A DNA stretch of 64,000 bases, from positions 5,639,550-5,703,549 of the forward strand of contig NC_092617.1 in assembly GCF_047663525.1 (NCBI RefSeq), in the 5' to 3' direction. The stretch comes from Anas platyrhynchos. Taxonomy: Eukaryota. The notes below the pieces were generated by a model. The model saw nothing but the letters and a program-made list of their open reading frames with translations. It was not told where the DNA came from and searched no databases. The translations under genes and the position numbers were made by a program. Numbering within the stretch: the first letter of the stretch is position 1; the number at the start of each line of letters is the position of its first letter. This document shows, in pieces, positions 3,786 to 64,000 of the stretch.

Positions 3786-4227
3786 TCATTTTGGGATGTT
3801 TCTTGGGGAGGGGGGGGGGAGGAAGCGCTGAGGCGCCGCCATTTTGAGTGTGGCGCCCAACCCGGCCACAGGGCGGCGCCATTTTGGTTGTGGCATTGCC
3901 CATATATGGAGCGGGGCGGGCGAACGGTGGCTTCCTATTGGTCGGATTTTCGCGGGGCGGTGGAACCCTGCGCTCCTATTGGTCGGATTTTCGCGGGCTA
4001 GGCCGCCATCTTGAGTGTGGCAGCGCCCGCGGGGATGAGGGGGCCGCCATCTTGGGTGCGGCGATGCCCATATATGGAGCGGGGCGGGCGAAGCGTGGCT
4101 TCCTATTGGTCGGTTTTTCGCGCGCTCGGGCGCCATCTTGAGTGCGGCGCCGCCATCTTGGGAAGGTCGCGGGGGCCAAACCGGAAAAGGGGGCAACCGG
4201 AAGTGGGGGGGCGTGGCCACGGCAGCA
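3786..4227 (+). promoter_or_regulatory. TTC5: TTC5 proximal promoter: tandemly duplicated ~168-bp unit carrying two perfect CArG boxes (CCATATATGG at 3900..3909 and 4068..4077), three inverted CCAAT boxes (CCTATTGGTCGG at ~3933, ~3974, ~4100) and about six YY1-like GCCGCCAT(C/T)TTG motifs
   Basis: Motifs read directly; located immediately 5' of the TTC5 ATG at 4228. Confidence 0.6.
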
Positions 4228-7300: not shown

Positions 7301-10300
7301 CCATGGAAACGGGGCCTAGAGGGGGACAAAACCCGGTTGCCATGGAGATTTGGGGTGAAAAAGCCTGGTTTCCATGGAAACAGGGAGATTTGGGGTGAAA
7401 AAGCCCCATTTCTATGGCAATTTGGGGTGTCAGGGCCCGGTTGCCATGGAAACTAGGCCTAGAGGGGGACAAGGCCTGGTTGCTGTGGAGATTTGGGGTG
7501 AAAAAGTCCCGTTTCTATGGAGATTTTGGGGTGAAAAAGCATGGTTTCCATGGAAACGGGGAGATTTGGGGTGAAAAAGTCCCGTTTCTATGGCAATTTG
7601 GGTTGACAGGGCCTGGTTGCCATGGAAACGAGGCCTAGAAGGTGACAAGGCCCCGTTTCCATGGTGATTTGGGGTGAAAAAGTCCCGTTTCTATGACAAT
7701 TTGGGGTGACAGGGCCTGGTTTCCATGGAAACGGGGAGATTTGGGGTGAAAAAGTCCCATTTCTATGACAATTTGGGGTGACAAGGCCTGGTTGCCATGG
7801 AAACGAGGCCTAGAGGTGACAAGGCCCGGTTGCCATGGAGATTTTGGGGTGAAAAAGCCTGGTTTCCATGGAAACGGGGTGATTTGGGGTGACAAGGACC
7901 CGTTTCTATGGAGATTTGGGGTGAAAAAGTCCCATTTCTATGACAATTTGGGGGTGACAGGGCCTGGTTGCCATGGAAACGGGGTAATTTGGGGTGACAA
8001 AACCCGGTTGCCATGGAGATTTGGGGTGAAAAAGTCCCGTTTCTATGACAATTTGGGGTGAAAAAGCCTGGTTTCCATGGAAACGGGGTGATTTGGGGTG
8101 ACAAAGTCCCGTTTCTATGGAGATTTTGGGGTGACAAGGCCCGGTTGCCATGGTGACGACCCCAAAATCCCTTTTTTTCCCCCCAGGAGATGGTGGCCGA
8201 GCTGTACCGCTTCAAGGACAGCCTGCGGCTGGGTGACAACCCCCAGAAGGGTGACAACGACACCCCCATGGGTGACAACAACCCCACAGGTGACAAAAAT
8301 ACCCCTAAAGGTGACAAAAACACCCCCACGGGTGACAAAAATACCCCTAAGGGTGACAAAAACAACCCCAAGGGTGACAAAAACACCCCCACGGGTGACA
8401 AAAACACCCCTAAGGGTGACAAAAACACCCCAAAAGGTGACAAAAACACCCTAAAAGTGACAAAAACACCCCTAAGGGTGACAAAAACACCCCGAAGGGT
8501 GACAAAAACACCCCCAGGGTGACAAAAACACCCCTAAAGGTGACAAAAATACACTAAGGGTGACAAAAACACCCTAAGGGTGACAAAAATACCCCTAAAG
8601 GTGACAAAAACACCCCCAGGGTGACAAAAATACCTCTAAGGGTGACAAAAATACCCCAAAGGGTGACAAAAATACCCCTAAGGGTGACAAAAACACCCCT
8701 AAAAGTGACAAAAACACCCAAAAAATGACAAAAACACCCTAAAAGTGACAAAAACACCCCAAAAGGTGACAAAAACACCCTAAGGGTGACAAAAAAACCC
8801 AAAGGGTGACAAAAACACCCCTAAGGGTGACAAAAACACCCTAAAAGTGACAAAAATACCCCTAAGGGTGACAAAAACACCCTAAAAGTGACAAAAATAC
8901 CCCTAAGGGTGACAAAAATACCCTAAGGGTGATAAAAACACCCCCAGGGTGACAAAAACACCCCCACAGGTGACAAGAAGACCCCCACGGGTGACAAAAA
9001 CCCCCCAAAAAGTGACACCGACCCCCAAAAAGGTGACGGCGGTCGCCTGGCGGCGCTGGAGGAGGAGATGGAGCGCACGGTGCAGCGCATGGAGGCCGTG
9101 CACGGTGAGCCCCAAAATCACCCAAAACCCCCGAAAAACCCCACCCATAACCCCAAAACCCTGCCAAAAACCCAAAAACCCTGCCCAAAACCCAAAAACC
9201 CCACCCAGAACCCCAAAAACCCTGCCCACAACCCAAAAAACCCCACCCATAACCCCAAAACCCTGCCCATAACCCAAAAAACCCCACCCATAACCCCAAA
9301 AACCCACGCACAACCCCAAAAAACCCGCGCACAACCCAAAAACCCCCACCGAAAACCCAAAAACCCCCACCCATAACCCAAAAAACCCCACCCATAATCC
9401 AAAAACCCCACCCACAACCCAAAAAAACCCGCCCATAACCCCAAAAAAACCCACCCAGAACCCCAAAACTCCGCCCACAACCCAAAAAACCCCGCCCAGA
9501 ACCCAAAAACCCCACCCAAAACCCAAAAAACCCCACCCAGAACCCAAAAACCCCACCCAAAACCCAAAAAACCCCACCCATAACCCAAAAACCCCGCTTA
9601 CAACCCAAAAACCCCCGCCCAAAACCCCAAAACCCTGCCCACAACCCAAAAAACCCCACCCATAACCCAAAAAACCCCACCCAGAACCCAAAAACTCTGC
9701 CCATAACCCAAAAAACCCCGCATACAACCCCAAAAACCCCGCCCACAACCCAAAAAACCCCGCCCAGAACCCAAAATCCTGCCAAAAACCCAAAAACCCC
9801 ACCCACAACCCAAAAAACCCTGCCCACAACCCAAAAACCCCGCCCAGAACCCCAAAAACCCCGCCCACAACCCCAAAAACCCTGCCCACAACCCAAAAAA
9901 CCCCACCCAGAACCCCAAAAACCCCGCCCATAACCTAAAAACCCCGTCCAAAACCCAAAAAAACCCCACCCATAACCCAAAAAACCCCGCCCAGAACCCA
10001 AAAAACCCCGCCCACAACCCAAAAAACCCCACCTACGACCCCAAAAACCCCACCCAAAACCCAAAAACCTGCCCAGAACCCAAAAAATCCCACCCATAAC
10101 CCAAAAAACCCCACCCAAAACCCAAAAAACCCCACCCACAACCCCAAAAAACCCCGCCCAGAACCCCAAAAACCCCGCCCAGAACCCAAAGACCCCACCC
10201 ATAACCCAAAAAACCCCACCCAAAACCCAAAAACCCCGCCCAGAACCCCAAAACCCCACCCAAAACCCAAAAAACCCCGCCCAGAACCCAAAAACCCCGC

Positions 10301-13300
10301 CCAGAACCCAAAAACCCCGCCCAGAACCCAAAAACCCCGCCCAGAACCCAAAAAACCCTGCCAAAAACCCAAAAAAACCCGCCCAGAACCCAAAATCCTG
10401 CCAAAAACCCAAAAACCCCACCCACAACCCCTAAAACCCCGCCTACAACCCCAAAAACCCCACCCATAACCCAAAAACCCCACCCATAACCCAAAAACTC
10501 CACCCATAACCCAAAAAACCCCACCCCAAACCCAAAAACCCCACGCACAACCCAAAAACCCCACCCATAACCCAAAAAACCCTGCCCACAACCCAAAAAA
10601 CCCCACCCAAAACTCAAAAACCCCGCCCAGAACCCCAAAAACCCCGCCCACAACCCAAAAAACTCCTCCCACAACCCAAAAAACCCCGCCCAGAACCCAA
10701 AACCCTGCCAAAAACTCCAAAAGCCCCGCCCACAATGATTAGGCCACGCCTACAAGCCCCAAAGCCCCGCCCACAACCCCCACAAGCCCCGCCCACAAGG
10801 CCCCAAACCACGCCCCGTTAAGGCCACGCCCCGTCTATCCTTGCCTGCCCCTTATTTGGCTCTGGCCACGCCCCCTCCGTCTAAACCACGCCCCCTCCAC
10901 CAAGCCACGCCCCCTCCATTAAACCACACCCCCTCCATTAGGCCCCGCCCCCTCCTTTAAGCCACGCCCCCTTCCCATAAGCCACACCCCTATTAGACCC
11001 CGCCCACCTCCATTAAGCCCCACCCCCCTATTAGACCGCGCCCCCTCCCCCAAGCCCCGCCCCGTCCATTAAGCCCCACCCCTTTAATTAAGCCCCGCCC
11101 CCTCCCTTAAGCCCCGCCCCCTCCCTTTAACCCCACCCTAACCCCACCCCCATATTAAGCCCCGCCCACCTCCCCTAAGCCCCGCCCCCTCCCCTAAGCC
11201 ACGCCCCCTATTAGACCCCACCCACCTCCATTAAGCCCCGCCCACCTCCATTAGGCCACACCCCTCCCTTAAGCCCCGCCCCTCCCTTAAACCCCGCCCA
11301 CCTCCATTAAGCCCCTCCCACCTCCCTTAAGCCCCACCCCCCCCAAGCCCCTCCCCCTTTAAGCCCCGACCCCTCCCCTTAAGCCCCACCCCCAATATTA
11401 AGCCCTGCCCACCTCCATTAAGCCCCGCCCACCTCCATTAAGCCCCGCCCACCTCCCCAAGCCCCGCCCACCTCCATTAAGCCCCACCCCTTCCCTTAAG
11501 CCCCACCCACCTCCTCCAAGCCCCGCCCACCTCCATTAAGCCCCACCCCCAATATTAAGCCCCGCCCACCTCCCCCAAGCCCCGCCCACCCCCTTTTTTG
11601 AAGCCCCGCCCCCTTTTTGAAGCCCCGCCCCCTCAGTGTCCCCCCAGGGCCGGGGCCGGGCGCTGCTGCTGCGGGCGCGGGCGCTGGAGGCGGCCCCGGG
11701 GGGCCGGGGGAGGGCGGAGGCGGCGCTGGGCAGGGCCCTGAAGCTGCAGCCGGGGCTGGCGCCCGCCTGGACCCGCCTGGGGGAGGCCCGGTGGAGCCAC
11801 GGGGACATCACGGGGGCCACGAGGTGCTTCCAGGGGGCGCTGGCGCATGTAAGTAACCCTATAGAGGATCTGGGGGGGATTTTGGGGTTATATCGGGGGT
11901 TATAGGGTCAAAAAGGGGGGTTTAGGGTTGATATTGGGGGTTATGGGGTCAGTATGGGGTGTTATAGGGTCAATATTGGGGGTTATAGGGTCAGTATCAG
12001 GCGTTATGGGGTCAATTTTGGGGTTATAGGGTCATTATTGGGGGATATGGGGTCAAGATCAGGGGTTATAGGATCGATATCAGGGGTTATAGGGTCAATA
12101 TTGGGGGTTATGGGGTCAATATTGGGGGTTATAGGGTCAATATCAGGGGTTATAGGGTCGATTTTGGGGTTATAGGGTCGATATTGGGGCTTATAGGGTC
12201 AATATTGGGGGTTATGGGGTTGATTTAAGGGTTATAGGGTCAATACCAGGGGTTAAAGGATCACTTTTGGGGTTATAGGGTCAATATTGGGGGTTATAGA
12301 ATCAATATCAGGGGTTATAGGGTCCGTATGGGGTGTTATAGGGTTGATTTAGTGGTTATAGGGTCAATATTGGGGGTTATAGGGGGATTTGGGGGGGATT
12401 TGGGGGGTTATAGGGTCGATATCAGGGGTTATAGGGTCAATAGTGGGGGTTATAGGGTCAATATCAGGGGTTATGGGGTCAATATTGGGGTTATAGGGTC
12501 AGGATCAGGGGTTATGGGGTCGATTTCAGGGGTTATAGGGTCAAAAAGAGGGGGTTTAGGGTTGATTTTGGGGTTATAGGGTCGATATCAGGGGTTATAG
12601 GGTCAATATTGGGGGTTATGGGGTCAATATTGGGGGTTATGGGGTCAAAAAGAGGGGTTTTAGGGTCGATTTTGGGGTTATAGGGTCGATATTGGGGGTT
12701 ATAGGGTCAGTATCAGGGGTTATGGGGTCACTATGGGGAGTTAAAGGGTCGATTTTGGGGTTATAGGGTCAATATCAGGGGTTGTAGGGTCGATATCAGG
12801 GGTAATGGGGTCAAAAAGAGGGGTTTTAGGGTCAGTTTAGGGGTTATAGGGTCAATTTAGGGGTTATAGGGTCGATTTAGGGGTTATGGGGTCAGTATGG
12901 GGGTTATGGGGTGGATTTAGGGGATTTGGGGCGATTTGGGGTCAATTTGGGGTGGATGTAGGGGATTTTGGGGGGATTTGGTGTGGATTTGGGGTCTTTT
13001 GGGGTGCATTTGGGGGATTTGGGGCTATTTAGGGTGGATTCGGGGTGGATTTCGGGGATTTAGGGTCATTTGGGGTGGATTCGGGGCGGATTCGGGGTCA
13101 TTTGGGGTAGATTTGGGGGATTTGGGGTCTTTCGGGGTGGATTTGGGGGATTTGGGGTCAATTTGGGATTGATGGGTGGATTTAGGGGATTTGGGGTGGA
13201 TTTGGGGGATTTGGGGTCATTTGGGAGATTTGGGGGGGATTTGGGGTGGATTTGGGGCAGATTCAGGGTGAATTTGGGGGATTTAGGGTCAATTTGGGCT

Positions 13301-16300
13301 AGATTTGGGGGATTTGGGGTCATTTTGGGTGGATTTGGGGTGGATTTAGTGCATTTGGTTTTTTTCCATTTTTTTTTTTTCCTGTTTTTTTTCCTTTTTT
13401 TTGTTTTTTTTTTCCCTTTTTTGTTTTTTTCCCTTTTTGCTTTTTTTCCCTCTTTTATTTTTTTTCCTTTTTTTTCCCATTTTTGTTTTATTCTTTTTTT
13501 TGTTTTTTTCCCTTTTTTGTTTTTTTTTCCCTTTTTTTCCCATTTTTGTTTTTTTTTCCTTTTTTTTCCCATTTTTGTTTTTTTTCCCTTTTTTTCCCTT
13601 TTTTGTTTTTTTTCCCTTTTTTTTTCCCTTTTTATTTTTTTTTCCTTTTTTCTTTTTTTTCCCTTTTTTGTTTTTTTTTCCCTTTTTTTCCCTTTTTTGT
13701 TTTTTTCCCTTTTTTTTCCCTTTTTTGTTTTTTTTTTTCCCGTTTTTGTTTTTTTTTCCCCATTTTTGTTTTTTTCCCCTTTTTTTCCCTTTTTCTTTTC
13801 CCTTTTTTATTTTTTTTCCATTTTTTCCCGTTTTTCTTTTTTTCCCCCTTTTAGTGTTTTTTCCCTTTTTTTTATTTTTTCCCATTTTCGTTGTTTTTTC
13901 CCTTTTTTGTTTTTTTCCCTCTTTTATTTTTTTTCCTTTTTTTTTCCCCTTTTTGTTTTTTTTTCCATTTTTTTCCCTTTTTTTCTTTTTTCCCATTTAT
14001 TTCCTTTTTATTTTTTTCCCTTTTTTTTTCTTTTTTCCCTCTTTTATCTTTTCCCTTTTTTCTTTTTTTTCCCTTTTTCTTTTTTTTCCCTTTTTTCTTT
14101 TTTTTCCCTTTCTTTTTTTTCCCATTTTTGTTTTTTTTCCCATTTTTGTTTTTTTTCTCTTTTTTTTTTTTTTCCATTTTTTTTCCCCGTTTTTTGTTTT
14201 TCCATTTTTTCCCCTTTTTTTTCTTTTTTCCCCTTTTTTTTCTTTTTTCCCCTTTTTTTCCATTTTTTCCCCTTTTTTTTCTTTTTCCCCCTTTTTTTTC
14301 TTTTTCCCATTTTTCCCATTTTCCCCCTTTTTCCCCCCAAAAGTGCGACGACCCCGAAGCCCACCGCCTGCTGTCCATGGCCCTTCGCCGGGGGGGGTCC
14401 CTGCAGGAGGGGCTGGCCCAGGCCGAGGCCGCCGTGCGCTGCGACCCCACAGCCGGCAGCTCCTGGTGTGAGTGGGGGGCTTACGGGGTCCTTATAGGGT
14501 CGGGGGGCTTTTGGGGGGTCCCTATGGGGTCAGCGGGTCGGGGTCAACAGGGTTTGGTCGGGACGGTTTTGGGGTTAAATGCTGCGATTTTGGGGTCAAT
14601 CGGGCTAAAGGGGGAGGTTCTAGGGATAAAAGATCTTTTAGGGTCGTTTTGGGGTTTTATAGGGTCGGGGGGCTTCTGGGGGGTCCCTATGGGGTCAGCG
14701 GGTCGGGGGCAATAGGGTTTGGTCGGGATGGTTTTGGGGTTAAATGCTGCGATTTTGGGGTCGATCGGGCTAAAGGGGGAGGTTCTAGGATTGAAAAATC
14801 TTATGGGGTCGTTTTGGGGTTTTATAGGGTCGGGGGGCTTCGGGGGGGTCCCTATGGGGTCAGCGGGTCGGGGCCAATAGGGTTTGGTCAGGACGGTTTT
14901 GGGGTTAAATGCTGCGATTTTGGGGTCGATCGGGCTAAAGGGGGAGGTTCTAGGGATAAAAGATCTTTTAGGGTCGTTTTGGGGTTTTATAGGGTCGGGG
15001 GGCTTTTAGGGGGTCCCTATGGGGTCAGCGGGTTGGGGTTAAGGGGGGTTAATGGGGAGGTTTTTGGGGTTAAATGCTGCGATTTTGGGGTCGATCGGGC
15101 TAAAGGGGGAGGTTCTAGGGCTTTGGGAACATTTAGGGTCGTTTTGGGGTTTTATAGGGTCGGGGGGCTTCAGGGGGGTCCCTATGGGGTCAGCGGGTCG
15201 GGGTTAAGGGGGGTTAATGGGGAGGTTTTTGGGGTTAATTCATGCGATTTTGGGGTCGATCGGGCTAAAGGGGGAGGTTCTAGGGATAAAAGATCTTTTA
15301 GGGTCGTTTTGGGGTTTTATAGGGTCGGGGGGCTTTTGGGGGGTCCCTATGGGGTCACCGGGTCGGGGGCAATAGGGTTTGGTCGGGGGGGTTTTGGGGT
15401 TAATTCATGCGATTTTGGGGTCGATCGGGCTAAAGGGGGAGGTTCTAGGGCTAAAAGATCTTTTAGGGTCGTTTTGGGGTTTTATAGGGTCGGGGGGCTT
15501 TTGGGGGGTCCCTATGGGGTCAGCGGGTCGGGGGCAATAGGGTTTGGTGGGGAGGATTTTGGGGTTAATTCATGCAATTTTGGGGTCGATCGGGCTAAAG
15601 GGGGAGGTTCTAGGGATAAAAGATCTTTTAGGGTCGTTTTGGGGTTTTATAGGGTCGGGGGGCTTCTGGGGGGTCCCTATGGGGTCAGCGGGTCGGGGTC
15701 AATAGGGTTTGGTGGGGACATTTTTGGGGTTAATTCATGCGATTTTGGGGTCGATCGGGCTAAAGGGGGAGGTTCTAGGGCTAAAAGATGTTTTAGGGTC
15801 GTTTTGGGGTTTTATAGGGTCGGGGGGCTTTTGGGGGGTCCCTATGGGGTCAGCGGGTCGGGGTTAAGGGGGGTTAATGGGGAGGTTTTTGGGGTTAAAT
15901 GCTGCGATTTTGGGGTCGATCGGGCTAAAGGGGGAGGCTCTAGGGCTATGAGAATATTTAGAGTCGTTTTGGGGTTTTATAGGGTCGGGGGGCTTTTGGG
16001 GGGTTCCTATGGGGTCAGCGGGTCGGGGTCAATAGGGTTTGGTCAGGAGGTTTTTGGGGTTAATTCCTGCGATTTTGGGGTCGATCGGGCTAAAGGGGGA
16101 GGTTCTAGGGCTTTGGGAACATTTAGGGTCGTTTTGGGGTTTTATAGGGTCGGGGGGCTTTTAGGGGGTCCCTGTGGGGTCAGCGGGTCGGGGTCAATAG
16201 GGTTTGGTGGGGAGGTTTTTGGGGTTAAATGCTGCGATTTTGGGATCAATCGGGCTAAAGGGGGAAGTTCTAGGGATAAAAGATCTTTTAGGGTCGGTTT

Positions 16301-19300
16301 GGGGTTTTATAGGGTCGGGGGGCTTTTGGGGGGTCCCTGTGGGGTCAGGGGGTGTTTATGGGGTCGTTATAGGGTCGGGGGGCTTTATGGGGTCTTATAG
16401 GGTCGTTATTGGGTCGGGAGGTTTTTATAGGGTTTTGGGGTTTTTATGGGGTTTTGGGGTTTTTATGGGGTCCTTATAGGTTCGGGGGGGTTTTATGGGG
16501 TCAGGGGGGTTTTATGGGGTCGGGGAGGTTTTTGGGGTCAGGGGGTGGTTATGGGGTCGTTATGGGGTCGGGGGGCTTTATGGGGTCTTATAGGGTCGTT
16601 ATAGGGTCGGGAGGTTTTTATAGGGTTTTGGGGTTTTTATGGGGTTTTGGGGATTTTATGGGGTCCTTATAGGTTCGGGGGGGGTTTATGGGGTCAGGGG
16701 GTGTTTATGGGGTCGTTATAGGGTCGGGGGGCTTTATGGGGTCTTATAGGGTCGGGAGGTTTTTATAGGGTTTTGGGGTTTTTATGGGGTTTTGGGGTTT
16801 TTATGGGGTCCTTATAGGTTCGGGGGGGGTTTATGGGGTCAGGGGGTGTTTATGGGGTCGTTATAGGGTCGGGGGGCTTTATGGGGTCTTATAGGGTCGG
16901 GAGGTTTTTATAGGGTTTTGGGGTTTTTATGGGGTTTTGGGGTTTTTATGGGGTCCTTATAGGGTCGGGGGGCTTTTATGGGGTCGGGGGGGTTTTATGG
17001 GGTCGGGGGTTGTTTATGGGGTCGTTTTGGGGTCCCTAAATCCCCGTTTTTTCCCCCAGACGTGCTGGGCAACGCCTACGTCTCGCTCTTCTTCGCCGGG
17101 GGGCAGAGCCCCGAGGCCGCTCGCCGCGCGCTGGGCGCCTACGCGCAGGCGGTAGGCGGCCCTATAAATTTTTGGGGGACCCTATAGGGCCGGGGGGGGA
17201 CCCTATAGGGCCGGGGGGGACCCTATAGGGCCTTTGGGGTCCCTATAAGGCCTGGGGGGGCGTTATGGGGCAGGGGGAGGGCGTTATAGGGCCGGGGAGG
17301 GCGTTATAGGGCCGGGGAGGGGTTATAGGGTCAGGGGGTCTTGTAGGGTCCCTATAGGGCCGGGGGTCGCTATGGGGTCTCTATGGGGCCCTATAGACTC
17401 TATAGGGTCGCTATAGGGCCGGGGGTGTCTATGGGGTCCCTATGGGGCCCTATGGTCCCTATAGGGCCTGGGGCTGCTATGGGGTCTCTATGGGGCCCTA
17501 TAGTCGCTATAGGGTCCCTATAGGGCCAGGAGTGTCTATGGGGTCGTTATGGGGCCCTATGGCCACTATAGGGCCTGGGGCTGCTATGGGGTCTCTATGG
17601 GGCCCTATAGTCGCTATAGGGTCACTATAGGGCCCTATAGGGCTGGAGTTTGCTATGGGGTCCCTATAGGGCCAGGGGGTTCCATGGGGTCGTTATGGGG
17701 CCCTATGGCCACTATAGGGCCTGGGGCCGCTATGGGGTCTCTATGGGGCCCTATAGACTCTATAGGGTCACTATAGGGCCCTATAGGGCTGGAGTTTGCT
17801 ATGGGGTCCCTATAGGGCCGGGGGTGTCTATGGGGTCCCTATGGGGCCCTATGGTCCCTATAGGGCTTGGGGACGCTATGGGGTCTCTATGGGGCCCTAT
17901 AGACTCTATAGGGTCACTATAGGGCCAGGGCTGTCTATGGGGTCCCTATAGGGCCAGGGGGTTCCATGGGGTCCCTATGGGGCCATACGGCCACTATAGG
18001 GCCTGGGGCCGCTATGGGGTCTCTATGGGGCCCTGTAGTCTCTATAGGGTCACTGTGGGGCCCTATAGGGCTGGAGTTTGCTATGGGGTCCCTATAGGGC
18101 CAGGGGTGTCTATGGGGTCTCTATGGGGCCCTATGGCTGCTATAGGGCCTGGGGCCGCTATGGGGTCTCTATGGGGCCCTATAGACTCTATAGGGTCACT
18201 ATAGGGCCCTATAGGGCTGGAGTTTGCTATGGGGTCCCTATAGGGCCAGGGGTGTCTATGGGGTCCCTATAGGGCCGGGGGTGTCTATGGGGTCCCTATA
18301 GGGCCTGGGGCTGCTATGGGGTCTCTATGGGGCCCTATAGTCGCTATAGGGTCCCTATAGGGCCAGGGGTGTCTATGGGGTCATTATGGGGCCATACGGC
18401 CACTATAGGGCCTGGGGCCGCTATGGGGTCTCTATGGGGCCCTATAGACGCTATAGGGTCACTGTGGGGCCCTACAGCCCCTATAGGGCCCTATGGTCGC
18501 TATGGGGCCCTATGGGGCCTAGCGGGGCCTATTGGGGCCTATGGGGCAGGCCCCGTTGCTAGGGCCCGGCCCGGTTGCTAGGGGGCGTGGCCCCACGTCT
18601 CCATGGTAACGAGGCCCCGCCCCCCCCCCCGTCAGGAAAAAATCGACCCCGCCGCCGCAGCCAATCCCGACCTCCACCTCAACCGCGCCACGGTACGGCA
18701 GCCAATGGGGAGCGAGCGGGGGCGGGACTAAGGGCGGGAGGGCGGGGGGGGGAGGCAGCCAATGGGGAGCGAGCGGGGGCGGGACTAGGGGCGGGAGGGA
18801 AGAGCGGCGGGGGAATCAGCCAATGGGGAGCGAGGAGCGGCGCGGCTCAGCCAATGGGCGCGCAGCTGCTGCAGTACCAGGAGCGCTACGGGGCCGCCCT
18901 GGAGGGGCTGGCGCGCGCCGCCGCCTTGGCGCCGGAGTGGGCGGAGCCGCGCATGCGCCACGCGAGGCTCCTCGACTTCCTGGGCCGCCTCTGCGCGTTG
19001 CTGGGCAACCGCGTGAGTGACGGGAGGGGGGGGGGGCGGGGCTTAAAGGGGAAGGGGCGGGGCTTAAGGGAGGGGGCGGGGTTTAAGGGAGGGGGAGGCG
19101 GCGGCCATTTTGGGGGGGGTTTGGGGGAGATTTTGGGGATTTGGGGGTGGTTTTGGGGGGTTTTGGGGGGATTTTAGGGAATTTGGGGGGGATTTGGAGA
19201 GATTTGGGGGATTTGGGGGGGAATTAGAGGGATTTTGGGGGATTTTAGAGGGATTTTGTTGGAATTTGCAGAATTTGGGGCATTTTGGGGGACTTTGGGG

Positions 19301-22300
19301 GGATTTTGGGGGGATTTTGTGGTAATTTGGGGGGATTGGGGGCATTTTGGGGATGATTTAGGGGACTTTGGGGGGATTTTGGGGGATTTTGTGGTAATTT
19401 GAGGGGATTTGGGGGATTTTGGGGGCAATTTGAGGGATTTTGGGGGATTTTAGAGGGATTTTGTGGGAATTTGCAGAATTTGGGGCATTTTGGGGGGATT
19501 TTGGGGGGATTTGGGGGATGATTTGGGGGATTTTGGGGGGATTTTGGGGGGATTTTGAGGTAATTTGAGGGGATTTGGGGCATTTTGGGGGAATTTGGAG
19601 GGATTTGGGGGATTTTGGGGATGATTTGGGGGACTTTGGGGGGATTTTGTGGTAATTTGGTGGGATTTGGGAGGATTTTGGGGGGAATTTGAGGGATTTT
19701 GGGGGATTTTAGAGGGATTTTGTTGGAATTTGCAGAATTTGGGGCATTTTGGGGGGTTTTTGGGGGGATTTGGGGGAATTTTGGGGAGGATTTGGGGCAT
19801 TTTGGGGGGTTTTGGGGGAGTTTGGGGCGTTTTGGGGGATCTTGGGGGGACTTTGGGGGGATTTAGGGCATTTGGGTGGGATTTTAGGGGATTTTGGGGG
19901 GATTTGGAGGGATTTGGTGGGGGATTTGGGGTATTTTGGGGGGATTTTGGGGGGATTTTAGGGGGAATTGGGGGGGTTTGGTGGGATTTGGGGGTTTTTG
20001 GGGGGATTTGGGGGAGGATTTGTGGGATTTTGTGGGGATTTTGTGGGAATTTGGGGGTTTTGGGGGGGATTTGGGGGAATTTTGGGACAACTTGGGGGCA
20101 TTTTGGGGGAATTTGGGAAAATCTGGGGCAATTTGGGGGGATTTTGTTGTAATTTGGGGGATTTAGGGCGTTTTGGGGACATTTGGATGGATTTGGGGGC
20201 ATTTTGGGCGGATTTTGGGGGATTTGGGAGAATTTTGGGGTGATATGGGGCAACCTTGGGGCATTTTGGAGGGATTTGGGGAGGATTTGGGGCATTTGGG
20301 GGCATTTTAGGGGAATTTGGGGCATTTTGGGTGGATTTGGGGCAATTTGAGGGATTTGGTGTATTTTGGGGGGAATTTGGGGGTTTGGGGAATTTGGGGG
20401 GAAATTTGGAGGAATTTGGGGGCATTTTAAGGGGGATTTGGGGCCATTTGGGGTGGATTTGGGACCATTTGGGGCCGTCTTTGGTAGATTTGGGGCCATT
20501 TAGGGTTATTTTGGGTCCTTTGGGGTGGATTTGGGGCCATTTGGGGTGGTTTTGGGTCCATTTAGAATTATTTTGGGTCCTTTGGCGTGGATTTGGGGCC
20601 ATTTGGGGCCATCTTTGGTGGATTTGGGTCCATTTGGGGTGGATTTGGGGCCATTTGGGGTTATTTTGGGATCATTTAGGGTTATTTTGGGTCCTTTGGG
20701 GTGGATTTGGGGCCATTTGGGGTGGATTTGGGGCCTTTTAGGGTTATTCGGGGTCCATTTGGGGCCATATAGCGTGAATTTGGGGCCATTTGGGGTTATT
20801 TTGGGTCCTTTGGAGTGGATTTGGGGCCATTTGGGGCCATTTTGGGTGGTTTGGGGGCCATTTAGGGTGGATTTGGGGCCATTTTGGGTGGTTTTGGGGC
20901 CATTTGGGGTGAACTTGGGGCCATTTGGGGCCATTTTGGGTGGATTTGGGTGGTTTTGGGGCCATTTAGGGTTATTTTGGGTCCTTTGGGGTGGATTTGG
21001 GGCCATTTGGGGTGGATTTGGGACCATTTAGGGTGGATTTGGGGCCATTTAGGGTTATTTTGGGTCCTTTGGGGTGGTTTTGGGCCATTTTGGGTGCTTT
21101 TGGGGCCATTTTGGGTGGATTTGAGGCCATTTTGGGTGGATTTGGGGCCATTTGGGGTTATTTTGGGTGTTTTTGGGGGACATTTTGGGTGTTTTTGGGG
21201 CCATTTGGGGTTATTTTGGGGCCATTTGGGGCCATTGAGGGTGGATTTGGGGCCATTTATGGTTATTTTGGGTCCATTTGGGGTGGATTTGGGGCTGGTT
21301 TTGGGTCCATTTCCCTCCTTTTAGGGCAAAGTGCGGGGCAAGCGGCTGCGGGGCCTTTTGGGGTCGCTGCCCCCGTCCCTTTTGGGGCCGCTGGGGGGGG
21401 TCCCGACCCTTTTGGGGTCGCTGCGTTTTGGGGCCAACCCCGGGCGGGCGCTGCTGGGCCGGGTCCTCTTCAGCCTCACCCCGGACGAGGGCGTCCCCCT
21501 GTGAGTTTTGGGGTCATTTTGGGGGTTTTTGGGGTTTTTGGGGGGGGTTATGGGGTCGGGGAGGGGTTGTAGGGTCAGGGGGAGGGGGGGTTTGGGGGGG
21601 TTTAGGGGGGTTTTGGGGGGTTTAGGGGGGTTTTGGGGAGGTTTTAGGGGTTTTTGGGGGGTTTTGGGTGATCCTATCAGCGGGAGCATGGCCCTATAAG
21701 TGCACTGGGGTGTACTGGGAGGGGACTGGGGGATACTGGGAGGGGACTGGGCTATACTGGGAGGGACTGGGGGGGACTGGGATATGCTGGGAGGGACTGG
21801 GAGGGGACTGGGGGGGACTGGGAGGGACTGGGAGGGGACTGGGAGGGGAGTGGGGGATACTGGGAGAGGACTAGGATATACTGGGAGGGACTGGGAGGGG
21901 ACTGGGGGATACTGGGAGGGGACTGGGCGATACTGGGAGGGGACTGGGCTATACTGGGAGGGACTGGGGGGGGCTGGGATGAACTGGGAGGGATTGGGAG
22001 GGGTTGTTGGGTACTGGGGGAGAACTGGGATATACTGGGAGGGCACTGGGAGGGGACTGGGGGATACTGGGATATACTGGGAGGGCTCTGTGCTGCTTTA
22101 TACTGGGCTATACCAGTTTGTACCGGTATATACTGGTCCGTACTGGTCCATACTGGTTTATACTGGTCCATACTGGTTTGTACTGGTTTATACTGGTTCT
22201 TACTGGTTTATACTGGTTTGTACTGGTTCTTACTGGTTTGTACTGGTGCAGGACGCTGGGGGTGGCGGATGGGGCGGGGGCGGTGGCGGCCGTCAGCGTC

Positions 22301-23854
22301 TTCAACGCGGCCCCAAACTGGGGGGTACTGGTGGGGGACGCCCTGGGGCTGCCCGAGCCCCGCCTGCGCCAGCAACTGGTGCAGCACCAGGGGAAGGTAA
22401 CTGGGAGCACTGGGAGGCGCTGGGAGGGGGTTTGGGGGGGGCTGGGGGGGGACTGGGAGGGACTGGGAGGCACTGGGAAGGGGTTTGGGGGGGGTTAAAG
22501 GGGACTGGGAGGGAACTGGGATATACTGGGAGTGACTGGGAGGGGACTGGGAGGGGGTTAAGGGGGACTGGGAGGGCACTGGGATGAACTGGGAGGGATT
22601 GGGAGGGGGTTGTTGGTTAGTGGGGGGGAACTGGGATGAACTGGGAGTAAACTGGAATATACTGGGAGCAACTGGGAGGGACTGGGAGGGGGTTTGGGGG
22701 GCATATGGGGGGACTGGGAGGGGGCTGGGATGTACTGGGAGGGGACTGGGCCATACTGGGAGGGACTGGGAGGGACTGGTAAGGGGTTAAAGGGGACTGG
22801 GAGGGTACTGGGAGGATACTGGGAGGGAACTGGGATATACTGGGAGGGACTGGGAGGGGGTTAGGGAGGATTGGGGGGTATTGGGATTTACTGGGAGGGT
22901 ACTGGGAGGGCACTGGGTTATACTGGGAGGGACTGGGATGAACTGGGAGGGGGTCTGGGGAGGTGTGGGCATACAGGGAAGGCCTGGGCTATACTGGGAG
23001 GGAGCTGGGGGGCACTGGGGTGTACTGGGAGGGGACTGGGATGAACTGGGAGGACACTGGGATATACTGGGAGGGACTGGGAGGGGACTGGGGCATACTG
23101 GGATATACTGGGAGGGGTCTGTGCTACTTTATACTGGTTTGTACTGGGCCGTACCAGTTTGTACCAGTATATACTGGTCCGTACTGGTCCATACTGGTTT
23201 ATACTGGTCCATACTGGTTTGTACTGGTTTATACTGGTCCGTACTGGTCTATTTATACTGGTCCTTACTGGTGTATACTGGTTTGTACTGGGCTATACCA
23301 GTTTGTACCAGTATATACCGGTCCGTACTGGTCCCTACTGGTCCCTACTGGTCCGTACTGGTCCCTACTGGTCCGTACTGGTCCTTACTGGTTTATACTG
23401 GTTCTTACTGGTCTATTTATACTGGTCCTTACTGGTGTATACTGGTTTGTACTGGGCTATACCAGTTTGTACCAGTATATACCGGTCCCTACTGGTCCGT
23501 ACTGGTCCATACTGGTCTATACTGGTCCCTACTGGTCCGTACTGGTCCTTACTGGTTTATACTGGTTCTTACTGGTCTATTTATACTGGTCCTTACTGGT
23601 GTATACTGGTTTGTACTGGGCTATACCACTTTGTACCAGTATATACCAGTCCCTACTGGTCCATACTGGTCCCTACTGGTCCATACTGGTCCGTACTGGT
23701 CCTTACTGGTTTATACTGGTTCTTACTGGTGCAGACGTTCTCCTTCGTGTCCATCCGGGTCCCGTCCCCGCTGTCCCTGGTGGTCAACGGGCGCCGCCCC
23801 CCCCCCTCGGCCGCCGCCCCCCCCCGGCTGCAGTGCTCCAACCCCCCCAATTAA
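4228..23854 (+). CDS. TTC5: TTC5 (tetratricopeptide repeat domain 5, Strap) complete CDS, join(4228..4311,8187..8232,9033..9104,11637..11848,14344..14467,17060..17151,18636..18692,18866..19012,21325..21500,22252..22396,23735..23854), 1275 nt, 424 aa
   Basis: Spliced translation is colinear with vertebrate TTC5 (ALRALEEMVAELYRFKD; EEEMERTVQRMEAV; ALKLQPGLAPAWTRLGEARW TPR; YVLGNAYVSLFFAGGQSPEAARRALGAYAQA; EKIDPAAAANPDLHLNRAT; LLQYQERYGAALEGLARAAALAPEW; GKVRGKRLRGLLGSLPP; VSVFNAAPNWGVLVGDALGLPEPRLRQQLVQHQGK; TFSFVSIRVPSPLSLVVNGRRP). All junctions are GT-AG and the phases are consistent. Confidence 0.85.
4330..8160. repeat. ~3.8 kb complex tandem array in TTC5 intron 1 built from ~40-bp subunits GCCTGGTTGCCATGGAAACGAGGCCTAGAGGGGGACAAG and GGAGATTTGGGGTGAAAAAGTCCCGTTTCTATGG
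   Basis: Direct reading. Confidence 0.9.
8187..8232 (+). CDS. TTC5: TTC5 exon 2 (EMVAELYRFKDSLRL+G)
   Basis: Acceptor tttttttccccccag; donor G|GTGACA lies within the first unit of the 21-bp intronic repeat. Confidence 0.85.
8233..8940. repeat. 21-bp minisatellite GGTGACAAAAACACCCCTAAG (~34 units), TTC5 intron 2; period is a multiple of 3
   Basis: Direct reading. Confidence 0.9.
9033..9104 (+). CDS. TTC5: TTC5 exon 3 (GDGGRLAALEEEMERTVQRMEAVH+G)
   Basis: Acceptor ccaaaaag; donor G|GTGAGC; matches human EMEKTLQQMEEVVG. Confidence 0.85.
9110..10740. repeat. 20-bp minisatellite AACCCAAAAACCCCGCCCAG (~80 units), TTC5 intron 3; every unit carries an Sp1 GC box CCCCGCCC
   Basis: Direct reading. 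Confidence 0.9.
10800..11630. repeat. 22-bp minisatellite AAGCCCCGCCCACCTCCATT (~35 units), TTC5 intron 3; GC box in every unit
   Basis: Direct reading. Confidence 0.9.
11637..11848 (+). CDS. TTC5: TTC5 exon 4 (VSPQGRGRALLLRARALEAAPGGRGRAEAALGRALKLQPGLAPAWTRLGEARWSHGDITGATRCFQGALAH)
   Basis: Acceptor ccctcag chosen because it keeps the frame; donor CAT|GTAAGT; TPR region matches human [33 protein letters not shown]. Confidence 0.75.
11860..12930. repeat. 21-bp minisatellite GGGGTTATAGGGTCAATATTG (~50 units), TTC5 intron 4
   Basis: Direct reading. Confidence 0.9.
13340..14335. repeat. ~1 kb polypyrimidine tract (T5-8 C2-3)n on the plus strand, TTC5 intron 4, ending at the exon 5 acceptor
   Basis: Direct reading. 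Confidence 0.9.
14344..14467 (+). CDS. TTC5: TTC5 exon 5 (CDDPEAHRLLSMALRRGGSLQEGLAQAEAAVRCDPTAGSSW+T)
   Basis: Acceptor ccccccaaaag; donor T|GTGAGT; matches human CRNKVSLQNLSMVLRQL..DGRSW. Confidence 0.85.
14470..16400. repeat. ~160-bp higher-order repeat, about 12 tandem copies (GGGGGCTTTTGGGGGGTCCCTATGGGGTCAGCGGGTCGGGG...GGGCTAAAGGGGGAGGTTCTAGG...), TTC5 intron 5
   Basis: Monomer restarts at ~14495, 14655, 14815, 14975, and so on. Confidence 0.9.
17060..17151 (+). CDS. TTC5: TTC5 exon 6 (YVLGNAYVSLFFAGGQSPEAARRALGAYAQA)
   Basis: Acceptor ttttttcccccag; donor GCG|GTAGGC; matches human [31 protein letters not shown]. Confidence 0.85.
17160..18560. repeat. CCCTATAGGGCC / GGGGTCTCTATGGGGCCCTATAG family arrays, TTC5 intron 6
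   Basis: Direct reading. Confidence 0.85.
18636..18692 (+). CDS. TTC5: TTC5 exon 7 (EKIDPAAAANPDLHLNRAT)
   Basis: Acceptor ccccccccccgtcag; donor ACG|GTACGG; matches human EKVDRKASSNPDLHLNRAT. Confidence 0.85.
18693..18865 (+). promoter_or_regulatory. TTC5: Three and a half tandem ~48-bp units, each carrying CAGCCAATGG (CCAAT) plus GGGCGGG (GC box), filling TTC5 intron 7; the last unit supplies the exon 8 acceptor
   Basis: Direct repeat reading. Confidence 0.5.
18866..19012 (+). CDS. TTC5: TTC5 exon 8 (LLQYQERYGAALEGLARAAALAPEWAEPRMRHARLLDFLGRLCALLGNR)
   Basis: Acceptor gcgcgcag lies in the last unit of the CCAAT/GC repeat; an in-frame alternative acceptor 15 nt upstream (ctcag|ccaatggg) is possible; donor CGC|GTGAGT; matches human [28 protein letters not shown]. 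Confidence 0.75.
19090..21300. repeat. G4T4-like arrays (GGGGGATTTTGG)n, 19090..20470, then 21-bp GGGGCCATTTGGGGTGGATTT units, 20470..21300; TTC5 intron 8
   Basis: Direct reading. Confidence 0.9.
21325..21500 (+). CDS. TTC5: TTC5 exon 9 (GKVRGKRLRGLLGSLPPSLLGPLGGVPTLLGSLRFGANPGRALLGRVLFSLTPDEGVP+CT)
   Basis: Acceptor ttccctccttttag; donor CT|GTGAGT; matches human GKVKTKKLQSMLGSLRP..KVVFSLTTEEKVP. Confidence 0.85.
21700..23730. repeat. (GGGACTGGGAGG)n arrays (21700..22100, 22400..23130) and 12-bp (TACTGGTCCNTA)n arrays (22100..22250, 23130..23730); TTC5 introns 9-10
   Basis: Direct reading. Confidence 0.9.
22252..22396 (+). CDS. TTC5: TTC5 exon 10 (L TLGVADGAGAVAAVSVFNAAPNWGVLVGDALGLPEPRLRQQLVQHQGK)
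   Basis: Acceptor tactggtgcag comes from the 12-bp TACTGGT satellite; donor AAG|GTAACT; matches human [47 protein letters not shown]. Confidence 0.85.
23735..23854 (+). CDS. TTC5: TTC5 terminal exon (TFSFVSIRVPSPLSLVVNGRRPPPSAAAPPRLQCSNPPN*), stop TAA 23852..23854
   Basis: Acceptor tcttactggtgcag, again from the TACTGGT satellite; matches human [23 protein letters not shown]..RPQCE*. Confidence 0.9.
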   Translation, partial: TFSFVSIRVPSPLSLVVNGRRPPPSAAAPPRLQCSNPPN

Positions 23855-23878
23855 CCAATTACCCCCCTCATTAACGCG

Positions 23879-23886
23879 TGACGTCA
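23879..23886. promoter_or_regulatory. Perfect palindromic CRE (TGACGTCA) 25 nt after the TTC5 stop codon, followed by GC boxes (23890..23945)
   Basis: Exact 8-mer consensus. Confidence 0.4.
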
Positions 23887-23899
23887 TCAATCCGCGCCC

Positions 23900-25100
23900 C
23901 GCCCCCTGCCCTGGGGTGGGCGGGGCTTGGGAAAAGGGGGCGGGGCCGCATGGGGGCCGCCATCTTGGGGGTGGCGGCGGGAGGTGGGGGCGGCCATGTT
24001 GGGTGTGGCAAAGGGGGAGTGGGGGCCGCCATCTTGGAGGGGGTGTGGCCCATGGGGGGGGCGGGGCTGAGGGGGTGGGGCCAAGGGCGTGGAGGGCATG
24101 GGGGGGTGGGGCCTGGTCACGTGAGGGCGGCCATCTTGGGTGGGCGTGTCTTAATGGAGGCGGCCATCTTGGGTGTGGCCATCACCATGGGGACCCCGCC
24201 ATGTTGGGTGTGGCCCCCACACACGTAGGCAGCCATCTTGGGTGTGGCCCAGTGGCATATGAAGGCAGCCATATTGGGTGTGGCACCCCCCCTAACAGTC
24301 AGCCATCTTGGGTGTGGCCAACCCCTTAGAAGTCCACCATGTTGGGTGTGGCACCCCAAAAAGCAGTCAGCCATGTTGGGTGTGGCCCAGTGACACAAGG
24401 GCAGCCATCTTGGGTGTGCCAGCCCCCTTCAGAGCCCGCCATCTTGGGTGTGGCCCAGTCACAAAAAGGCAGCCATGTTGGGTGGGGCCAAGGTCATGAA
24501 GGCAGCCATCTTGGGTGTGGCCACTGTCATGGAGGCGGCCATCTTGGGTGTGGCACACCCCCTCGGAGCCCGCCATGTTGGGTGTGACACCCCCCAAGCA
24601 GTCAGCCATCTTGGGTGTGGCCAAGTCCCATGAAGGCGGCCATCTTGGGTGTGGCAATCACCATAGGGACCCCACCATCTTGGGTGTGGCCACCCCACCA
24701 TTGGGCAGCCATCTTGGGTGGGCGTGTCCTAATGGAGGCAGCCATCTTGGGTGTGGCATCCCCCCAAAACAGGCAGCCATCTTGGGTGGGTGTGTCCCCA
24801 CTGCCGTCGGCCATCTTGGGTGTGGCCCCGTCACATCAAGGCGGCCATGTTGGGTGTGGCAACCCCCTGGGGGTGGCCATCTTGGGTGTGGCAATCACCA
24901 TGGAGGCCGCCATCTTGGGCGTGGCCAACCCCGAAGCAGTCAGCCATCTTGGGCGTGGCCTACATCACGGGGGCGGCCATGTTGGGTGTGGCCCAGTCCC
25001 ATGGGGGCGGCCATCTTGGGCGTGGCCAACCCTGGGGGCGGCCATCTTGGGCGTGTCGCCGTCCCCCCGGGGGCGGCCATGTTGGGCGTGGCGCCCCGGT
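23900..25100. promoter_or_regulatory. ~1.2 kb tandem array (~40-bp unit, about 30 copies) of GGC(C/A)GCCAT(C/G)TTGGGTGTGGC; each unit carries the YY1 core consensus (GCCATnTT / AAGATGGC); sits between the convergent 3' ends of TTC5 and HNRNPC
   Basis: Direct reading; motif matches the YY1 core consensus. Confidence 0.55.
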
Positions 25101-25116
25101 TACAAACCATCCGTCC

Positions 25117-25122
25117 TTTAAT
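25117..25122 (-). terminator. HNRNPC: ATTAAA poly(A) signal candidate on the minus strand, ~235 nt downstream of the HNRNPC stop codon
   Basis: Hexamer (plus-strand TTTAAT). Confidence 0.35.
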
Positions 25123-25129
25123 CGTTAAC

Positions 25130-25235
25130 GAGGTATCAAAATTAAAAGGGGGCGGGGCCAACGGCGGGGAGGGGGCGGGGCCAAACAGGGAGGGGGCGGG
25201 GCCACAGGAGGAGGGGGCGGGGCTAAATTGGGGGG
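25130..25235. promoter_or_regulatory. Four tandem GC boxes (GGGGCGGGGCC) with ~25-bp spacing, inside the presumed HNRNPC 3' UTR region
   Basis: Direct reading. Confidence 0.4.
25141..25146 (+). terminator. TTC5: ATTAAA poly(A) signal candidate on the plus strand (possible TTC5 3' end; would imply a ~1.3 kb 3' UTR spanning the YY1 array)
   Basis: Hexamer only; no AATAAA elsewhere in the GC-rich 23855..25140 interval. Confidence 0.3.
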
Positions 25236-25352
25236 GGGGGAGGGGCACAACACCACGAACACGGGGAGGGGGGGGAGGGGAGGGGGATGGGGGGGGGGGT
25301 CCCGGCCTTCACCGTTCTGCGCTCGCGATTTTTGGGGTGAAAAACGGCGATT

Positions 25353-39153
<13,801 letters not shown>

Positions 39154-41340: not shown

Positions 41341-41470
41341 AGGGGAGGGGGCGGAGCCAACAGGAAAGGGGGCGGGGCTAAAGGAAAAGGGGGCGGGGCC
41401 AAAGGGAAAGGGGCGGGGCCAAAGAGGGCGGGGCCAAAAGGGCTTGGGCTGGGGGCGGGGCTCGTTACCG
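41340..41470 (-). promoter_or_regulatory. HNRNPC: GC-box cluster (five GGGGCGGGGC[CT]AAAGG units); a minus-strand GTAACG donor-like site at ~41466; candidate alternative HNRNPC 5' exon or promoter
   Basis: Motifs only. Confidence 0.3.
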
Positions 41471-44290: not shown

Positions 44291-44499
44291 CCACGAACCA
44301 CGAGAGGATTGGTGCAAAAGAAGTGAAAAGGAGGAAAAATCACCGACTTCCGGAGGCGCAAAACAGCCGAGGAGCAACCGGGTCCCGCTCTGCGCTGGGG
44401 AGGAAAAACGGGGCAGGTTTTGGGGACGTTTCGGCCTTTTTTGGTTCATTTCACCTAGTCTCCATTTCCTCACCCTCGCCTGGCCTCCCTGGGGGGGTT

Positions 44500-52459: not shown

Positions 52460-64000
<11,541 letters not shown>

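Follow-up and report, generated by a model that had tools for sequence, protein, structure and literature searches.

The window described here, a 64-kb stretch of duck (mallard, Anas platyrhynchos) DNA, contains an array of 32 head-to-tail units between the poly(A) regions of two genes, TTC5 and HNRNPC, and every unit carries a motif of the YY1 type. The reading that we put forward, tentatively and with somewhat less than even confidence, is that the array is a YY1 platform amplified by stuttering and held under constraint at the level of the DNA, and that its role where the two genes terminate convergently would be that of a boundary or roadblock. In the mechanism that we propose, the local repeat expansion of avian dot chromosomes would have turned a YY1-type site into many, densely packed as a platform for binding. 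Flanked by the HNRNPC poly(A) site on one side and by the end of TTC5 on the other, this platform would, with protein bound to it, form the boundary or roadblock that separates the two convergent transcription units. The reading is based on the quality of the motifs, on the age of the array, and on a core that evolves more slowly than its spacers and that has outlasted a coding function, from which we infer occupancy by YY1 and any effect on termination or insulation.

The array and its YY1-type core

TTC5 (plus strand) and HNRNPC (minus strand) were placed by tblastn with the human proteins, which the matches themselves validate as queries, and the two genes are transcribed convergently. The HNRNPC stop codon lies on the minus strand (Table 1) and the interval is therefore a convergent 3'-3' gap, in agreement with the preliminary description of this DNA, which had placed it between two gene 3' ends. 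The array units are spaced 31-36 bp apart with a mode of 34; the preliminary description had announced about 30 tandem units of ~40 bp, and of this the array stands, with 32 units, while the period proves shorter. Tandem Repeats Finder (TRF) reports a period of 34 with 68% matches. The unit consensus on the plus strand is GGC(G/A/C)GCCAT(C/G)TTGGGTGTGGC, and the core read on the minus strand is the full YY1 consensus CAAGATGGCNGC, which can also be written CAAGATGGC-N-GC. Only two positions vary appreciably in the core, and the spacers of 12-17 nt are close to randomized. The strict pattern GCCATNTTGGG has 29 matches within 23959-25086, all on the plus strand, where 0.93 would be expected in the whole window.

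The quality of the motifs was judged in two ways. With an approximate version of the YY1 count matrix JASPAR MA0095.2, each of the 32 units reaches 12.4-18.8 of the 18.8 bits possible (relative score at least 0.91), and together they make up 32 of the 57 matches above a relative score of 0.90 in the window, compared with 1.4 matches in the shuffled region at the laxer cut-off of 0.80. A YY1 core in each unit had been claimed beforehand and a scan below threshold had been named as its refutation; by this approximate matrix every unit is instead top-scoring. The published definition of a YY1 cluster is at least three cgCCATntt motifs within 500 bp, each with no more than one mismatch, confined to its lower-case bases (PMC2665242), and by this measure 32/32 units pass, all on the plus strand within 1.25 kb, six of them as perfect CGCCATNTT. 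Binding of YY1 needs both T's of CGCCATNTT, and the zinc fingers of YY1 are essentially invariant in vertebrates (PMC1904287). Both of these T's are invariant in the array, and the two variable core positions are those least read by the YY1 matrix. ECMFinder also asks for a location within 5 kb of a transcription start, and here the array differs, lying at the 3' end of both genes, ~20 kb past the start codon of TTC5 and ~14 kb from that of HNRNPC.

The core is also the slowly evolving part of the unit. Mean pairwise identity among the duck units is 0.87 in the 19-nt core, 0.52 in the spacer and 0.46 for shuffled spacers, and almost all of the core differences fall at the two variable positions. 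In a matched-pair test we took the ten non-overlapping pairs of duck units with the most similar spacers, a choice that biases against the result, and found that the 17 fixed core positions differ in 3.5% of comparisons against 12.8%, plus 14 gap columns, in the spacers of the same pairs (Fisher p = 0.003), such that the core has evolved about four times more slowly; the two polymorphic core positions differ in 11/20. The longest invariant block of the array exceeds that of each of ten other arrays profiled in the window.

Table 1. Positions of the array, its flanking features and related repeats; positions refer to the window unless another locus is named.
Feature	Position	Strand	Basis or content
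TTC5 promoter YY1-consensus sites, six	3836-4170	+	20-mer GCCGCCAT(C/T)TTG(A/G)GTG(T/C)GGC shared with the 3' array, same orientation
TTC5 start codon	4228	+	tblastn
TTC5 last coding exon	23732-23854, TAA stop 23852-23854	+	open reading frame (ORF) list and tblastn
Promoter-like motif block	23847-23950		CCAAT 23847-23851 and 23855-23859, cAMP response element (CRE) 23879-23886, three GC boxes 23895-23950
Array units 1-3 (GGGCCGCCATCTTGG...)	23954-24057	+	unit table; two with perfect 12-nt YY1 consensus; 16.6-18.8 bits
G-rich array interruption, 67 bp	24058-24124		GC boxes and E-box CACGTG 24118-24123, read from sequence
Array units 4-32, 29 contiguous	24125-25092	+	TRF, pattern search, unit table, matrix scan
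AT-rich island	25096-25150	-	ATTAAA on minus strand 25122-25117, then GT-rich GGATGGTTTGTA; plus-strand ATTAAA 25141-25146
Four GGGGCGGGGCC boxes	25147-25239		TRF period 21, 4.3 copies
HNRNPC last coding exon	25353-25439, stop 25353-25355	-	tblastn, 93% identity to human C-terminus
HNRNPC start codon	39129	-	tblastn
Zebra finch second array	finch locus 26610-28138		~3 kb from the intergenic array
Array in last intron of CCNB1IP1-like gene upstream of TTC5	ostrich locus 8260-9552; emu locus 9981-10300		partly palindromic units GGTAAGATGGCGGCCGCCATGG
NUT-family gene with ~25 in-frame 12-residue ..PKMAA.. repeats	ostrich locus 27969-29389; emu locus 44400-46080	-	

Age and coding history of the array

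The TTC5 locus of the window was compared with that of eight other species (six birds, gharial and soft-shelled turtle), with one assembly per species (Table 2). An array lies directly 3' of TTC5, on the TTC5 sense strand, in 7/7 birds and in 0/2 reptiles, hence it is specific to birds and was present at the avian root. As regards the homologous position that ECMFinder looks for, the 7/7 birds have 4-32 sites with periods of 22-36 bp. The part common to the arrays of the birds is GC-N-GCCAT-N-TTGG, and spacers and periods are species-specific. The array stays with TTC5 across three different neighbors, namely the NUT-like gene, HNRNPC and an IRF-side locus, and in all four neognaths that have the TTC5-HNRNPC pair the distance from stop to stop is ~1.3-1.5 kb.

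Table 2. YY1-type sites 3' of TTC5; sites counted as cgCCATntt with at most one mismatch unless stated.
Species	Sites	Period (bp)	3' neighbor of TTC5
Duck (window)	32	34	HNRNPC
Ostrich	21	36	NUT-family gene
Emu	27	36	NUT-family gene
Eagle (Morphnus)	4	30-36	HNRNPC
Zebra finch	32	29	HNRNPC
Crane	11, of which 10 perfect CGCCATCTT	36	HNRNPC
Budgerigar	20 units by regular expression, not cgCCATntt-scored	22, then 33-36	not HNRNPC; IRF gene further on
Gharial	2 (background)	no period	olfactory receptor
Soft-shelled turtle	6 in 10 kb (background)	no period	none called

In the two palaeognaths the array is coding. The spacings between motifs are multiples of three in 23/23 cases in ostrich and 26/26 in emu, units deviating from 36 bp included, and on the minus strand the array is open as 12-residue repeats ending ..P-K/N-M-A-A, in which AAG-ATG-GCN-GCN codes for Lys-Met-Ala-Ala. 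Two exons just upstream on the minus strand are conserved between the two species, the 4 changes seen in the first all being synonymous, and they match Pfam NUT (PF12881, E = 7e-23) and align to the human NUTM1 segment PDPGLLSYINELCS...RDPLALIEELE. From the in-frame spacing and the upstream NUT exons it follows that the palaeognath array makes up the C-terminal repeat encoded by a NUT-family gene, which is transcribed convergently to TTC5; a protein database search with the ostrich NUT-like product, both as the full 413 aa and as the non-repetitive 78 aa, gave no homologue. The base before AAG/AAC-ATG in ostrich is C in nearly all units though the residue that it helps to encode varies (P, A, S, F), which hints at a DNA-level constraint even where the array is coding.

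In the neognaths this coding role is gone. The spacings are multiples of three in only 9/31 cases in duck and 5/32 in finch, with the other neognaths likewise out of frame, and the minus-strand ORFs across the duck array do not exceed 102 aa, so that frame and ORF length together rule out a coding repeat in duck. There are no NUT exons or NUT-like sequence in the duck window, and the gene next to TTC5 is not of the NUT family in any of the five neognaths. The new periods of the neognath arrays (34, 29, 22, and 36 bp) and their unrelated spacers mean that the arrays have turned over since coding ended. Nevertheless, at each of the 12 specified core positions the consensus is the same in every lineage, while the spacers cannot be aligned. 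A core that stays unchanged after loss of the frame, drift of the period and divergence of the spacers points to selection on the core at the DNA level, and we conclude that the core is probably held by selection on the DNA with YY1 as the best candidate for its reader. Two elements of this account are additional to the preliminary description: the array is homologous to a palaeognath coding repeat, and this type of chromosome amplifies local sequences routinely.

The ends of the neighboring transcripts bear on the placement of the array. The only poly(A) hexamers in 23800-25450 are the two ATTAAA of the AT-rich island, which is almost invariant among duck, eagle, crane and zebra finch, and we read this island as the putative HNRNPC poly(A) site. 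With that reading the four GGGGCGGGGCC boxes, which differ between birds, would be inside the HNRNPC 3' untranslated region (UTR) and the array would start just past the cleavage site. The preliminary description had listed these boxes as evenly spaced within an intergenic / 3' UTR interval, and the even spacing is retained; its suggestion of a boundary or termination element fits the placement of the array, with the HNRNPC poly(A) site on one side and the TTC5 stop on the other, the role itself being what we infer. In eagle, finch and crane an AATAAA or ATTAAA of TTC5 comes directly after the stop codon, ahead of the array.

The loci of the other birds hold further repeats and motifs at the edges of the array. 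In the budgerigar locus (12726-13760) the far edge of the array has two inverted YY1 motifs, several CCGGAAGT ETS sites and one TGACGTCA, and is promoter-like. Most of the TTC5-HNRNPC gap in eagle (locus 19130-19840) and crane (locus 14500-15040) is occupied by another array (GGGCTGGCTATGGGGCA...), and its motif family (CTATGGGGC / CTATAGGGC) recurs in a TTC5 intron of duck, at 17.2-18.5 kb.

Alternative explanations and the surroundings of the array

Any explanation of the array must take account of its chromosomal setting. The mallard contig measures 6.3 Mb and represents a small, repeat-saturated chromosome, and TRF returns 403 rows on the window, with minisatellites wall to wall, which makes a tandem array per se unremarkable here. 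This is the GC-rich, repeat-saturated landscape of avian dot chromosomes (PMC9974502; PMC12954441), and the imperfect tandem expansion, in blocks of tens of bases within an array-saturated region, is what is called stuttering on such chromosomes. On chicken dot chromosomes, "sequence stuttering" of local seeds includes parts of exons and extends to intergenic DNA (PMC12954441). Because stuttering is known there, a serious rival, which we rate as possible rather than probable, is that the array is a self-renewing relic that has no function: the PKMAA repeat from the last exon of a NUT gene, which neognaths would have deleted here or moved elsewhere, would have been stranded beside TTC5 and kept alive by the expansion and contraction of dot-chromosome repeats, and its likeness to YY1 sites would come from the AAG-ATG-GCN-GCN codons. 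Such a relic would fit the open frame in ostrich and emu and the NUT exons upstream of it, the first of which has changed only synonymously, as well as the saturation of the window with arrays and the inclusion of exon parts and intergenic DNA in chicken stutters.

Several observations favor a relic of this kind or otherwise weigh against a YY1 platform. The copy number at the TTC5 flank ranges from 32 down to 4, in eagle, hence the array need not be large. In zebra finch an HNRNPC intron holds a second array of this family (GGGGCGGCCATGTTGGATATGGGG, with 55 sites and a period of 21-27 bp), and in ostrich and emu an intron of CCNB1IP1 contains a different AAGATGGCGGCC array, and therefore such arrays spread with no positional role that is obvious. 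These birds also have other repeat families in common, for example ACTGGGAGGG and CTATGGGGC, which makes the sharing of a motif across species weak evidence when taken alone. The two variable core positions correspond to third-codon positions of the ancestral Lys/Asn and Ala codons, and the YY1-like profile could thus be partly inherited; moreover, the YY1 matrix is approximate, and so are its scores. The duck array is depleted in CpG, with an observed/expected (o/e) ratio of 0.32 overall and 0.17-0.24 in the center compared with 1.00 at the TTC5 promoter, which points to germline methylation and away from both a CpG-island promoter (o/e above ~0.6) and a methylation switch, and many units resemble products of CpG decay (GGCG to GGCA, GGGCGTGGC to GGGTGTGGC). 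Finally, duck lacks a canonical plus-strand hexamer (AATAAA or ATTAAA) from the TTC5 stop up to 25141, and the array could accordingly be part of a long duck TTC5 3' UTR.

What speaks against a functionless relic is the behavior of the core. The five neognaths are all frame-less and have differing periods, yet the core consensus is the same in each, the fixed core positions of duck change about four times less often than spacers of the very same pairs, and in ostrich the C before AAG/AAC-ATG is nearly constant despite the varying residue. The difference between a relic and a YY1 platform matters for what the array can teach. If YY1 occupies it, no deeply conserved cluster of YY1 sites would have been described before it outside mammals, nor any at a convergent 3'-3' junction as opposed to a promoter or imprinting center, and it would mean that some dot-chromosome tandem repeats are under selection and are not pure instability; if YY1 does not, the array is a well-dated example of the persistence of a stuttered repeat. 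The coding state in ostrich and the non-coding state in duck form a natural experiment that separates constraint on the protein from constraint on the DNA.

A more ambitious version of the YY1 platform, which we consider rather unlikely as a whole, makes it an architectural element specific to birds, which their common ancestor already had at the 3' end of TTC5 and which was kept there while the neighbor changed at least three times. In ostrich and emu it would serve as a coding PKMAA repeat, and for neognaths its work would be that of a cis-acting boundary or terminator. If so, one tandem repeat would have been under two successive kinds of selection. The distal edge of the array may in addition be a recurrent rearrangement breakpoint. 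The YY1-type motifs of the CCNB1IP1 intron are opposite in orientation to those of the 3' array, such that the palaeognath TTC5 is bracketed by inverted YY1-like arrays.

The motifs ahead of the array could belong to an unannotated promoter in which CCAAT, CRE and GC boxes would direct the synthesis of a transcript, non-coding or antisense, with YY1 sites downstream of its start as many TATA-less promoters have them, an explanation that we find improbable. The motif grammar is indeed promoter-like: the palindromic CRE TGACGTCA is exactly where the preliminary description had put it, just past the TTC5 stop, and is followed by GC boxes as stated there; it has 3 copies in the window, where 0.09 would be expected, the other two being in promoter-like contexts (588 and 41163); the 96-bp CCAAT/CRE/GC-box block has a CpG o/e of 0.77; a CCAAT-plus-GC-box module also precedes the array in eagle, crane and budgerigar; and the bona fide TTC5 promoter carries the same 20-mer as the array. 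However, the CpG content of the array is far below that of the TTC5 promoter, which weakens the CpG-island form of the promoter reading, the CRE was not found at the corresponding position in the other birds, and the array in ostrich and emu is the 3' end of a coding gene. No known RNA family was credible in Rfam, whether at the gathering threshold on the whole window or at E <= 1 on the interval, and the sole Logan transcript, that of a related TTC5, stops 19 nt past the stop codon and is silent on the 3' UTR.

Some features of these promoter-like sequences are recorded here in their own right. The third CRE (588-595) is within a GC-box/ATTGG block that resembles another promoter, GTGACGTCATCA is found at both 41162 and 23878, and a GC-box mini-array of GGGGCGGGGCCAAAG (~6 copies, 41160-41460) upstream of HNRNPC mirrors the boxes of the HNRNPC 3' UTR. 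The six YY1-type sites of the TTC5 promoter score 16.1-18.8 bits by the approximate matrix and lie interspersed among GC boxes, ATTGG boxes and a duplicated set of CArG boxes (CCATATATGG), in view of which the TTC5 promoter itself looks "stuttered". Eagle and crane have a conserved pair of such sites upstream of TTC5, flanked by GCGCATGCGC. The nearest YY1-type site in zebra finch is ~760 bp upstream of the TTC5 start codon, and none was found within 400 bp of that codon in budgerigar or within ~440 bp in ostrich. A looping of TTC5 between YY1 sites at the promoter and the 3' end was dropped as an idea because promoter sites are not near the TTC5 start in these three birds.

It is very unlikely that the array works as RNA, within a long duck TTC5 3' UTR that extends to the ATTAAA at 25141 and provides protein sites, microRNA sites or structure. 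Such a UTR would agree with the lack of an earlier plus-strand hexamer in duck and with the situation in budgerigar, where the first eight array units (22-bp period) come ahead of an AATAAA. Against it are the poly(A) signals ahead of the array in eagle, finch and crane, the lack of an Rfam match, and the folding of the array, which on neither strand is better than that of shuffles (z = +1.25 and +1.34). A canonical G-quadruplex is likewise unlikely, each unit having one GGG run as judged by eye.

A methylation-sensitive control region of the imprinting or X-inactivation type (Peg3 and Xist, which the preliminary description had drawn into the comparison, or Nespas and DXPas34) is hardly to be credited, since even though the tandem YY1-motif array, its ~1.1 kb and 34-bp period, which resemble those of DXPas34, and the perfect CGCCATCTT units of crane are in keeping with it, the methylation sensitivity is not: the CpG of CGCCAT is present in 6/32 duck units (10/11 in crane), most of the others being GGCCAT or AGCCAT, the array is CpG-poor, and the CTCF consensus CCASYAGRKGGCRSY has no match with at most one mismatch in the interval, which also disposes of a CTCF-YY1 pairing of the DXPas34 type. 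To our knowledge, genomic imprinting is not established in birds.

The remaining repeats and genes of the window complete the setting. The last TTC5 introns are filled with ACTGGGAGGG arrays in all six birds compared (21704-23121 in duck), and their motif matches the sequence just past the exon end at 22396 (AAG|GTGACTGGGAG), from which it looks as if a conserved 5' splice site had seeded these arrays by stuttering. TTC5 intron 1 (4398-8153) consists of an array of 3.7 kb; the GTTGCCATGGAAAC in its units is a palindromic RFX X-box, nearly perfect, and one more motif resembling a transcription-factor site that is present in many copies. At 8247-9017 a 21-bp repeat, AAGGGTGACAAAAACACCCCT, continues in ~37 copies from TTC5 coding sequence (..GDKNTPKGDKNTP..); its frame is not open throughout, and the annotated mallard protein holds only part of it. 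The last TTC5 exon translates to FSFVSIRVPSPLSLVVNGRRPPPSAAAPPRLQCSNPPN* and is 100% identical to the NCBI mallard TTC5 isoform X2, mallard TTC5 being the top database match for the joined exons with 100% identity exon by exon; look-ups of the exact TTC5 proteins of mallard and Nicobar pigeon yielded no record. An HNRNPC exon is partly duplicated 521 bp upstream (37153-37070 and 36632-36333, within 36333-37153), each copy with a matching GCCATTTTGGG just outside (37134 and 36613), and this looks like the stuttering of an exon. SUPT16H exons lie beyond HNRNPC on the minus strand (52500-64000), and no RPGRIP1-like sequence was noticed between the two genes in the window. The human gene order presumably differs, with RPGRIP1 between HNRNPC and SUPT16H.

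Relation to known systems

The array is best filed under two known kinds, conserved YY1 clusters and dot-chromosome stutters, its coding and non-coding history being unusual for either; the literature that was searched on avian YY1 arrays and on NUTM1 in birds held nothing specific that describes it. At Tsix, DXPas34 is a ~1.2-kb array of 34-mers with YY1 sites, paired with CTCF sites and located beside a promoter. The duck interval, unlike DXPas34, has no CTCF consensus, and the likeness in length and period is probably a coincidence. Pause elements between closely spaced genes have reportedly been described in older work on MAZ4. The MAZ/CTCF pause or insulator elements (PMC7896315) are similar in that clustered sites for zinc-finger proteins are situated downstream of poly(A) sites and can block the polymerase; they differ in protein and motif, and YY1 arrays are not known to form roadblocks. 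The YY1 clusters in the coding regions of olfactory receptors (PMC2791781) resemble the ostrich and emu NUT-like gene in having the motifs within an ORF, although these are 4-8 dispersed sites per gene rather than a tandem repeat of 20-30 units, and the duck array is non-coding.

The closest relatives are the YY1 clusters of the type of the Peg3 differentially methylated region (Kim et al. 2006; ECMFinder, Kang et al. 2009, PMC2665242). Conserved clusters of this kind keep the motif while its number and spacing change, and they have mostly been confirmed by chromatin immunoprecipitation (PMC2665242). As in these clusters, the array has many motifs of the same orientation within ~1 kb, with the motif retained across species amid varying number and spacing and surroundings that cannot be aligned. 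Its conserved position and strand across birds, under changing unit number, period and spacer, are the signature of the Peg3-type clusters to which the preliminary description had pointed. Unlike them, it is at the 3' flank of convergent genes, whereas their location is close to start sites or within first introns, and it is CpG-poor in duck, avian, coding in some lineages and a candidate rather than a confirmed target of YY1. With the dot-chromosome stutters (PMC12954441) the array shares an imperfect local tandem expansion in a GC-rich, repeat-saturated and gene-dense region. Such stutters are, however, dynamic and variable, whereas the TTC5 array has kept its 12-nt core and its position in all seven birds, and it is the spacers of the array that are saturated with change while the core is not.

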